Shown: in pieces, positions 16,801 to 37,153 of the stretch
How positions within the stretch are numbered: position 1 is the stretch's first letter
Layout of the letters: the number at the start of each line of letters is the position of its first letter
Source of the DNA: Paraspadella gotoi
Taxonomy: Eukaryota; Animalia; Chaetognatha
Assembly (NCBI GenBank): GCA_051294375.1
Contig: CM119264.1
Location: 12,092,263 to 12,156,262 of the forward strand
Direction: 5' to 3'
DNA: 64,000 nucleotides
Made by a program: the position numbers and the translations under genes
Notes under the pieces: generated by a model
Told to the model about the DNA's origin: nothing
The model's database searches: none
What the model saw: the letters and a program-made list of their open reading frames with translations, nothing else

Positions 16801-19800
16801 TCTCTCTCTCTCTCTCCTTCCTTCTGTGAAATTCAAGAAAGCCGTAAAAGGCTCATTCGAATTCGAGGCTTTTCTTCCCGCCGCCATTCGGTGGAATCGC
16901 CGCGACGTCTTTTCTCGCCTTTTGGCCGGAAACGAAGGGGAAACGTCGACGGCGAAAACCGGCAGAGGGCGAAACGTTGAAAGTAGGTGGCGACAGCGAA
17001 AGTACATGGCGAAGACGAAATTTGGCCAAAAAGAGAAAGAAAAACGGTTTCGTCTTCAGCTGTGGCGAAACTAGCGACAAAAATTGTTGGCGGCGAAAAA
17101 AAAAAACGAGGACGAACTTAGGCGCTGACGCGTTATATGACAATCGTAAACTCTGGGGACGCCGGGGACGGGGACGCCGGGGAACTGGGACGCGACGGTG
17201 GCGGAGCGGAGAGGCGAAAGACGAGTCGAGTGGGGGAGGCATTGAATAACTGGGAAAATGACGAGAATAGAAATAAAACAGAGAGAAAACAAAATAGCAC
17301 TGGCTTTTTTTTATATGTGGGAAATTCTCATTTCTCTCTCTCTCTCTCTCTCTCTCTCTCTCTCTCTCTCTCTCTCTCTCTCTCTCTCTCTCTCTCTCTC
17401 TCTCTCTCTCTCTCTCCTCTCTCTTCTCTCTCTCTCTCTTTTCTCTCTCTCTCTCTCTCTCTCTCTCTCTCTTTCTCTCTAACCCCACGCCCACAGTATA
17501 TGTTAATACTAGAAAACGTGCAACTGCACGTAAGAAGTCCGCACGTGGGAATCGCACGCTTGTTTTGATCGCGATTCTGACGCGCGACAGATTTCGATTC
17601 TGCGCGCGTATTTTTTATTCTCGATGATTCTCCATCGCGGGTCGCAACACTCAGCCACTCCCGGATTTCACGCTCGATATACCTCTCTTGGTCTCTCGCA
17701 TACTATGCTATGTAATTCCGATCCTATTTGACTCATTCATTTGCCTTAGAAACAAAGCATATTATTGTTAAAGTTAATACGATTAATAACAATGACGAGA
17801 AAATTGACGAGAAAAAAAAATAAGGGCGAACCGCTTAGTTTGTGATTCTTTCGCAAATCACAAGTTATCTGCTCAGGTGTCCATCGTCCAGATTCTATAA
17901 CCAAGTCTCACTTTTCCTTCAATCAACTCACGAGTCCCGTGTAACGAATTATTCTTCTTTCTGATGGGAACAGACGGGGGGGAGGGTGGGTGTATGATCG
18001 TTTCCTGTCTTGAAAGGTGGGAAGGAGGGTAAGTGCCTCATTCAGAATACATTTCTTTTGGCGAAAGAAAAAACTAGAAAGAGAGGTATTATTAATAATG
18101 ATGGTAAAAAATTACTTTTTTTAAAAGCCTTCCTATCTTTTTCTCTTTCTCTTGACGACTTTCTCATTCACTTATCTATATTTCTTTCCCCTTTTTCTCC
18201 CCCTCTTCTCTTTCCCTTCCTTCCACCCCCATGTCCCCATACTCCCACCCTTTTTCTGATCGAGGATCTTGATTCCATGAATTTATGAATACGATTTTCT
18301 TTTCTCTTACCCTCACGAATCACCGCCGTGAATGAATACTTGGCGGCGGTGGTTGTGGTGGTGGTGGTTGACGTAGGTGAAGTGACTGAGGTAGTGACGA
18401 AAAAATGCATCCAGCATCAATTCCCAAATTAGGAATTTAGACCCAGTGACAGTTACGAAGAATTTTGAACCTTGAAACGGTATTCAATTCATTCGCCTAA
18501 CCCCGGAACGCTCCCCTTCTGTTATTCATTAGATAATCACTTATTACGATCACTCACAACCTGCGAAGCAAATATTCGCCGCTCAGTGTTTAATTAAGGG
18601 TCACCCCGCATTGAGGAGAGTCATTAATGGGACGGTGGTTAATTGCGAATTCCATTTTCGAGAGAGAGAGAGAGAGAGAGAAGAGAGAGAGAGAGAGAGA
18701 GAGAGAGAGAGGAGAGAGAGAGAAGAGAGAGAGAGAGAGAGAAGAGAGAGAGAGAGAGAGAAAGAAAGTAAAGGATTCCATTAGAAAACGTGAAATTCTC
18801 CGGCGGCGAGCTTTCGTCAATAATCATAAACGCATTCGTTTAAATGGTTGGGCTTGGACGACTCTGCATTTGGATGAAGCACGATTGTCTGTCTGTCAGT
18901 AAAAAAAATGGAGACGACGACGCAGTGACCGAGGCGCACTTGGACGAAACGCAACGACGCGCTGCGCTCAGCCGAGTTTTGTCCTCAGGCGAACGGTTTT
19001 AAAATTGGGCCTTGAGCTAAAACTGTCGGTTTAAACCCATAAATTAAGCGGATCTCAACGTCGTTCTTGTGTTTTTTTTTTTTCTAGACGGAATTTTATT
19101 TCAGGTGATTCATTTTGTTAGGCGCCTTTGGTCGTTCACACATTCTACGCTTTTATTTCCCACGAAATTACTTTTTGGTCTCCTTTCCCTTCATCGGGGG
19201 CCTTCAGGACCAGCTAACTCTTATTGTTATTCTCTAAACTTCTTGTTTTTAATTTATAATTCGTTGAAAAGAATTAAACATGATGTATTTCTTTGAATTT
19301 CAAAACCTTTTTTCTTCTTTCAACGTTTCTCCTTCTCATTCTCTTTTCGTTCTCTCTCTAGCGATCAACGCCTTTCTTTCTTTTTTTTTTCTTTTTTCAA
19401 TCGTCACCCTTATTTTTCTCTCAACACCTTCGTTCTTCTTTAGAGAACCTTTTTTTCTCGTCAACTTTCTCCTTTCTCCATCAATACCTTTTTTTCCCCC
19501 CATCACTTCCCCTTCTCCCTTTCCCCTTCTCCCCGCTCGTTTCCTTTTAGCAATTTTCCCAGTTTCGCATAAATTTCTTCACCGCGTAATTCGTTTCTTC
19601 GGGACTTTTTTTTATTTCGTCGAATGAGTCACACCGTCTCCCCATTTTTGTGAAAAGATTATGGCAACGGGAGGATAGCCTGTGTTACCCGGGGCGCGGG
19701 GTATCTCACAACCTGGCGTAGGGGCTGTGGACCCTCAGTGACCGCCTCCTGTCACTGGCAAGTTTATACCGGCACCATCACATTTAAGCCAGAACCGGGA

Positions 19801-36917: not shown

Positions 36918-37153
36918 TATGGCAATAGCCGGGTTGCCTGTGATGCCCATGGGGTGGGGCATCTCACTGTTGGCTTTAGGGGCTACTGACCCTCAGTGAC
37001 GCCTCCTGATACTGGCGCTGGTTACCCTCGGACCGTCTCGCTTTGCCAACGCAGAGGGAAGTCGTTAGGACTGTGGAAGTGTGTGGATGGAACGTAACTC
37101 TTGGGATTGGCTGAACGATGGTGGATGTGAGGCGGTGAGAATATACCGCCACA
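36918..37153. mobile_element. 236-bp inserted element, family member B (same family as 19660-19916)
   Basis: Termini TATGGC...GCCACA, flanked by the 4-bp direct repeat ATAT (36914-17, 37154-57). GC-rich island in AT-rich DNA; shares 'taggggct...gaccctcagtgac.gcctcctg..actggc', 'ggatggaa' and 'gtgaggc' with member A. Confidence 0.75.

Follow-up and report, generated by a model that had tools for sequence, protein, structure and literature searches.

Two short elements, here called E1 and E2, lie among animal genes in a 64,000-nucleotide stretch of the genome of the chaetognath Paraspadella gotoi (GenBank assembly GCA_051294375.1, contig CM119264.1, forward-strand positions 12,092,263 to 12,156,262; hereafter the window, with coordinates counted from its first letter). 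The genes recognized in the window are a SASH1-like SAM-SH3-SAM gene, p31comet, an aspartoacylase with 41 to 48% identity to amphioxus, gar, and annelid proteins, and a Nuf2-like piece; ARAGORN found no tRNA genes there. In the SASH1-like gene, a splice donor near 14451 and an acceptor near 25047 bracket E1, which likely lies antisense within what we infer to be a single intron. E2 lies ~150 bp beyond the stop of a minus-strand open reading frame (ORF) at 37300-38034, in the same orientation. An initial annotation had described the pair as mobile units carrying a structured RNA. The elements, their flanking duplications, and their end hairpins are as follows (LTR, long terminal repeat).

19660..19916, minus strand: element E1, likely solo LTR, 257 bp, sense strand TG…TA
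19656..19659, unstranded: E1 target-site duplication, left (AGAT)
19917..19920, unstranded: E1 target-site duplication, right (AGAT)
19888..19916, minus strand: E1 terminal hairpin, sense 5' end (GGCAGC/GCTGCC stem in the initial annotation)
19682..19709, minus strand: E1 3' hairpin (previously TACCC/GGGTA within GTG/CAC)
36918..37153, minus strand: element E2, likely solo LTR, 236 bp, member of a very abundant dispersed family
36914..36917, unstranded: E2 target-site duplication, left (ATAT)
37154..37157, unstranded: E2 target-site duplication, right (ATAT)
37127..37153, minus strand: E2 terminal hairpin, sense 5' end
36940..36967, minus strand: E2 3' hairpin (previously ATGCCC/GGGCAT)

The coordinates, the termini TATGGC…GCCACA, and the AGAT/AGAT and ATAT/ATAT repeats hold as first described. 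A 5-bp duplication (AAGAT and AATAT, with the element one base shorter) is also compatible with both sites locally; because copies of the E2 family diverge only beyond 37153, where the consensus of the loose ends starts with C or G, we take the terminal A to be part of the element and favor 4 bp over 5 bp. As a measure of chance, a 4-mer is repeated at ~250 bp at 422 of 63,000 window positions (0.7%). The two elements are homologous, with 75% alignment identity over the first 100 nucleotides (E about 2e-11), and none of 1,000 shuffles equaled the match of their 3' hairpins (71% identity), twister parts (69%), or terminal hairpins (67%), the middle part being at chance level (264 of 1,000 shuffles score as well). 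Both have a G+C content of 56%, versus 24 to 43% in the flanks. Folding of whole elements is unremarkable relative to shuffles (z of -1.4, -0.2, -1.5, and -2.2), and a model built from the two sequences found no third copy within the window, its 13 matches including 2 significant ones, E1 and E2 themselves.

Read on the minus strand, which is likely the functional one and is opposite to that of the initial annotation, both elements have, as we conclude with high confidence from their letters, the layout of a type-P5 twister ribozyme. The parts of the layout are placed as follows.

19712..19793, minus strand: E1 type-P5 twister layout
19793-88/19717-12, minus strand: E1 P5
19783-80/19763-60, minus strand: E1 P2
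19779 and 19778, minus strand: E1 catalytic G and A
19777-75/19730-28, minus strand: E1 T1
19774-67, minus strand: E1 P1, short, palindromic
19759-58/19725-24, minus strand: E1 T2
19757-51/19742-36, minus strand: E1 P3
19735-20, minus strand: E1 P4/L4
19765..19766, minus strand: E1 predicted self-cleavage site U^A (site rule from PMC8501958)
36969..37050, minus strand: E2 type-P5 twister layout, damaged copy
37037 and 37036, minus strand: E2 catalytic G and A, both present
37023..37024, minus strand: E2 predicted self-cleavage site U^A

In both copies the N^AA cut site is followed by P2 and the GC of T2, and the catalytic G and the next A stand directly behind the 3' strand of P2. T1 has three of its three pairs in E1, with C at the A·A place, and two of three in E2; T2 (2/2) and P4/L4 (4/4) are fully paired in both by alignment count. 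MAFFT, which is blind to structure, brings GA, T1, UAA, GC, P3, P4, and L4 into register between the elements, and in its alignment 56 of 62 cells pair, against 28 to 44% in slid controls, and four pairs, including one in T1, differ at both letters. P5 is shifted by one column in that alignment and was counted by script; it has all six pairs in each element, two of them with different letters on both sides. The damage in E2 amounts to one T1 mismatch, two P3 mismatches, and one P2 mismatch with one extra base. The helices listed in the initial annotation exist and are P3, P4/L4, the 3' hairpin, and the terminal hairpin viewed from the antisense side; its suggestion of a structured RNA, perhaps a ribozyme, stands, and the word "unrecognised" falls, since the layout belongs to a class already described, twister type P5, and lies on the other strand.

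A type-P5 descriptor built on the motif order tabulated in PMC8501958 was scanned over both strands of the window and matched E1 (score 25; T1 3/3, P2 3/4, P3 7/7, P4 3/3, P5 6/6) and E2 (score 20; T1 2/3, P2 2/4 without gaps, P3 5/7, P4 3/3, P5 6/6) and nothing else. It gave nine matches in 300 shuffles of the window (38.4 Mb), with a best score of 18 and none of the 300 equaling E1 or E2, and two (E1) and three (E2) matches in 20,000 shuffles of each element, with best scores of 18 and 19. At the gathering threshold Rfam had no match in the 64 kb; at a relaxed threshold the best of three matches around E1, on the minus strand, was to twister-P1 (20 bits, E 0.093), fitting from UAA through L4. 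The type-P1 reading implied by that alignment, with its partners downstream, was rejected because no T1 partner was found downstream; the parts absent there lie upstream, as in the type-P5 permutation (PMC5408937). The low Rfam score weakens formal filing in the family, not the match to the layout. No Rfam hammerhead match appeared in the E1 or E2 regions at the relaxed threshold. Readings as HDV-like, H/ACA, or Crypton were dropped because topology or ends did not match. Pattern scans elsewhere met four loci in viral contigs, one in metagenome contigs, and none in prokaryote genomes, and these five we regard as chance since their best score was 11.5 bits and confined to the seed words.

Two further pairings concern the same region. 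The GCC of P5 could alternatively pair with the GGC after the 3' hairpin (19675-19717 and 36933-36974, minus strand), which is the GCC/GGC stem of the initial annotation and might represent a refolding after cleavage. P1 is near-palindromic in both copies (19767-19774 and 37025-37032, minus strand) and might pair between two RNAs. Minimal hammerheads pair between RNAs as dimers.

Variation within the family of E2 bears on whether this fold is kept. We sampled the family with E2 as the only reference, aligning to it contigs from four of nine runs, all from one species. In run X2, 4,528 contigs align to E2, and the depth rises from 96 in the left flank to between 1.4e5 and 1.2e6 inside the element, with edges at 36918 and 37153; three further runs (134, 1,144, and 269 contigs) repeat the pattern. 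The loose flanks of these contigs agree at only 0.41 to 0.59. From the depth jump, the sharp edges, and the varied flanks, we conclude that E2 belongs to a dispersed family whose copies likely number in the thousands and whose middle part comes in several variants, summed depth not being a copy number. No empty E2 site was among the 15 of 35 joints listed, and the right flank had no coverage. Run X9, merely guessed to be RNA and covering intergenic flank, was not used as evidence of expression.

The common differences from E2 fall where E2 breaks the twister fold. Across the four runs, the two letters of the middle T1 pair change in concert (at 36987 in 95 to 99.9% of depth and at 37034 in 98.6 to 99.8%), giving a Watson-Crick pair unlike that of E1; the A·A position at 36985 is restored in 97.5 to 99.8% of depth, so that most of the family depth has all three T1 pairs and the A·A. 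P3 pairing is restored at 37009 (74 to 99%) and 37010 (91 to 99%), and the extra P2 base at 37019 is absent in 43 to 98%. Other differences from E2 sit in loops (36951-36954, 37003-37007, and 37029), and no variant at or above 5% was listed in the four runs at the catalytic G, its neighbor A, or the cut-site A. The GCCTCCT loop, called conserved in the initial annotation, is among the parts that vary (37003, 37004, and 37007). We therefore reject the pseudoknot between GCCTC and a 3' GAGGC that had been proposed from it: its loop varies, and a 5-nucleotide complement occurs in 34% of shuffled elements.

Published mutational data allow a prediction for each copy. P1 is dispensable in twisters, mismatches in P2 and P4 are mostly tolerated, T1 accepts swapped pairs and not most mismatches, and an A-to-C change at the A·A pair is tolerated (PMC5113685; PMC11662667). 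Each departure in E1 (a short P1, one P2 mismatch, and C at the A·A pair) is of a type that twisters have been reported to tolerate (PMC11662667; PMC5113685). On this basis we predict cleavage for E1 and impairment for E2.

Upstream of the twister part lie motifs resembling an internal promoter for RNA polymerase III (Pol III).

19849..19860, minus strand: E1 tRNA-like box A (TGGCTGAGCAGG), likely Pol III promoter (motif definition from PMC10886601)
19807..19817, minus strand: E1 tRNA-like box B (GGTTCAATCCC), 44 nt from box A
37085..37093, minus strand: E2 box-B-like motif (GTTCCATCC)

Boxes A and B of E1 are at tRNA spacing. E2 itself is without a good box A, and other family copies have a box-A-like word upstream, as judged by eye. 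Because the box-A pattern with one mismatch allowed occurs at five further sites in E1 and E2, box A by itself is weak, and the evidence lies in the paired spacing in E1. There is no run of four T within E1 or E2 on either strand. An A/B-box element could be a tRNA-derived short interspersed element (SINE) or, given that RTE elements in Schistosoma begin with twisters (PMC8501958), an RTE-type element with a twister at its head, inserted in either case by target-primed reverse transcription. We consider such an origin highly improbable. The boxes begin ~55 nt into the element, its two ends are precise, with a 4-bp duplication at both sites, and there is no A-rich or repeat tail; the twister cut site lies mid-element, 106 nt from the 3' end, rather than adjoining the duplication as in Perere-3 (PMC8501958).

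The ends of the elements bear on how they moved. On the sense strand the elements run TG…TA, and beyond 37153 the loose-end consensus reads C at positions 5, 6, and 8 in three of four runs (chance per C position, 0.9 to 9.7% for 62 random flanks), which in this low-agreement consensus would be a sense-strand purine tract abutting TG; the consensus at the other terminus is A/T only, unlike this C-rich end. A cut-and-paste origin, in which E1 and E2 would be elements resembling miniature inverted-repeat transposable elements, mobilized by a Ginger-type or other DDE transposase with the twister as a passenger, would account for the observation of single-unit copies only, and 4-bp AT-rich duplications with a TGTNR start fit Ginger2 (PMC2836005). 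It would leave unexplained the asymmetry of the purine-tract hint, and compensatory changes in the RNA fold, together with a promoter on that strand, imply that an RNA is under selection. Moreover, the inverted repeat at the termini spans only 6 bp and includes one mismatch, compared with 50 to 180 bp in Ginger2 and 40 to 270 bp in Ginger DNA transposons (PMC2836005). Ginger, one of the candidates first named for these ends, fails on this length, and we regard cut-and-paste mobility in general as quite improbable.

We judge it probable that E1 and E2 sit in an LTR-type unit. The initial view of a mobile unit with the footprint of a retroviral-type integrase is borne out by a dispersed and abundant family, precise ends, and a 4-bp duplication. 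The unit might be an autonomous Gypsy-type retrotransposon whose LTRs bear a twister, with E1 and E2 as its solo LTRs and no non-coding mini-element involved; ends, 4-bp duplication, and purine-tract hint fit this equally. We think it unlikely, since tRNA-type boxes point to Pol III, which is suited to short transcripts (an argument made in PMC10886601), cutting of both LTRs would, in any RNA that is not circular, remove the R repeat on which strand transfer depends (PMC4918200), and no coding region lies near E1 or E2.

We favor, somewhat above even, the proposal that E1 and E2 are solo LTRs from a non-coding retrotransposon of small size, one that would operate in the manner of plant LTR retrozymes with a twister, through the whole of the following cycle; this retrotransposon is best read as a Gypsy-dependent, Helenus-like mini-retrotransposon. 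Pol III would start at the boxes of the 5' LTR and, with no T-run in the LTR, would read through the primer site, a short inner part, and the purine tract into the 3' LTR. The twister of each LTR would then cut at U^A, yielding an RNA of unit length that has 5'-OH and cyclic-phosphate termini and lacks a terminal repeat, which a ligase such as RtcB would close into a circle, where the halves of the P5-permuted twister would be reunited. Reverse transcription of the circle, and integration of the product with a 4-bp duplication, would fall to a Gypsy-type helper, and solo copies would arise from short complementary DNAs or from LTR-LTR recombination. We infer every step by analogy with plant LTR retrozymes (PMC4918200) and with animal retrozyme RNA, which RtcB circularizes (PMC7229834).

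Several observations weigh against this proposal or the layout on which it builds. The E1 twister-P1 score is far under the gathering score (20 versus 67.2 bits), and even at the relaxed threshold Rfam listed no twister-P5 match for E1 and no twister match for E2. The descriptor was written after the sequences had been seen, though its fixed letters come from print, and covariation between two sequences is weak, being equaled by 26 of 500 shuffles. The nested twister fold is not the energy minimum in either element, with pseudoknots unscored (-19.4 versus -26.5 kcal/mol in E1 and -12.6 versus -25.1 kcal/mol in E2). Within the family, the outer P4 pair is broken at 36978 in most of the depth (95% in X2), the mismatch in the P2 pair adjoining the cut site persists, and variants at low depth are present at 37016 (T2), 37017, and 37020-37022, of which 37022 is the second A. 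All of this family evidence comes from the family of E2. As for the LTR features, the 3' end is TA and not CA, the purine-tract hint rests on a low-agreement consensus from runs of one species that are not independent, and no primer site is shared among the four to seven loose-end contigs listed at the other terminus. The window holds no paired-LTR copy, primer-binding site, or gag-pol, only two solo copies.

The weak Rfam score, the short P1, the P2 and outer P4 mismatches in most copies, and a twister fold that is not the energy minimum could also mean that the twister is a relic, or has become a non-catalytic signal for packaging or dimerization, inside an LTR-type element. The persistence of the catalytic G, the cut-site A, and both pseudoknots as the letters of the helices vary speaks against decay, as does the report that about 94% of natural twisters assayed were active despite imperfections (PMC11662667), and we hold a relic or non-catalytic signal to be very improbable.

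In design, E1 and E2 come closest to a few described systems and differ from each. With type-P5 twisters (Rfam clan CL00120; PMC5408937) they share the order of parts, the N^AA cut site, the GC of T2, an L4 of GU-NNN-N-AGCC, the catalytic GA, and the P3 and P5 stems; they differ in T1 letters unlike the usual CCC/GGG, in a P1 that is a 2-bp stem with a near-palindromic loop, and in scores far under the Rfam gathering threshold. Plant LTR retrozymes (Cervera et al. 2016, PMC4918200) are likewise non-coding, with a ribozyme in a short terminal unit, a 4-bp duplication, solo copies, and a G+C content above 55%. They contain a type III hammerhead, whereas E1 and E2 have a twister layout and an animal host; their unit is 300 to 400 bp, compared with 236 to 257 bp and tRNA-like boxes here, and they are known from paired copies, a primer site, and circular RNA, compared with two solo copies (PMC4918200).

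Helenus elements (TRIMp3; Kojima 2024, PMC10886601), which are TRIMs (miniature retrotransposons with terminal repeats), have in common with E1 and E2 the tRNA-derived A/B boxes in a short LTR, a 4-bp duplication in animals, starts resembling TGTGGCAG, TA ends in some cases, and many solo LTRs. Helenus TRIMs use Gypsy helpers (PMC10886601), and most of the Helenus LTRs examined have a T-run after the tRNA part (PMC10886601), a feature absent in E1 and E2. The main text of PMC10886601, in the part used, describes no ribozyme in Helenus, and a search of its Data S1 for twister L4 words gave none. In those data we saw by eye, in the wasp elements Helenus-2_SyJa-LTR and Helenus-2_SyUm-LTR, a hammerhead core (CTGATGA…GAAA) after the tRNA boxes; its fold appears to be type III, and the main text, in the part used, does not mention it (PMC10886601). 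These LTRs have the layout of E1 and E2 with another ribozyme.

Self-cleaving ribozymes within animal retroelements are shared with twister-headed RTE elements (Perere-3, PMC8501958) and animal non-LTR retrozymes (PMC7229834). In Perere-3 the twister is at the 5' end next to the duplication (PMC8501958), whereas in E1 and E2 it is mid-element, and animal non-LTR retrozymes have type I hammerheads in tandem repeats, no LTR features, and longer duplications (PMC7229834; bioRxiv 10.64898/2026.07.22.740005).

Other features of the window stand apart from this argument. The 244-amino-acid product of the ORF next to E2 (37300-38034, minus strand) has hydrophobic stretches and several PPxY-like motifs and no Pfam match. 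An active twister at the position of E2 could cut the 3' untranslated region of this ORF; the E2 ribozyme is the damaged one. A 9-kb inverted duplication (40293-49213 versus 49868-58594, 95% identity, many single-base gaps, surrounding an N run) is likely an assembly artifact, and a 1.3-kb direct duplication (11-1263 versus 5160-6496, 86% identity, many small gaps) is either an assembly artifact or an old duplication. Another short dispersed repeat, at 23403-23491 and 35781-35870 (90 bp, 91% identity) with a partial inverted copy at 35117-35152, has no relation to E1 or E2.

Twisters are widespread and have few assigned roles, the one we found in print being 5' processing of RTE-type non-LTR elements (PMC8501958; PMC7761336), where twisters occur as hammerheads do in plant LTR and animal non-LTR retrozymes (PMC6765202; bioRxiv 10.64898/2026.07.22.740005). 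LTR retrozymes have been described as mainly plant and hammerhead-bearing, and animal retrozymes as non-LTR (PMC7229834; bioRxiv 10.64898/2026.07.22.740005). In the openly readable literature searched, we found no twister inside an LTR or TRIM; the E2 family may already be catalogued and have gone unremarked. Tentatively, at slightly less than even, we suggest that the family is an animal twister-based LTR retrozyme, Pol III-driven and non-coding, with a circularly permuted twister, a circular RNA, and thousands of copies, in which several subfamilies diverged while the ribozyme was kept. If so, a twister in an animal LTR-type unit would extend both the roles of twisters and the range of LTR retrozymes, and would offer a direct test of the model in which ribozyme cutting and circularization replace the R repeat in LTR retrotransposition. 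The family would also supply natural variants of the P5 type in large number, of a sort that covariance models fail to detect. Together with the hammerheads of wasp Helenus elements, it would make a tRNA promoter plus a ribozyme in the LTR a recurring animal design with interchangeable ribozymes.

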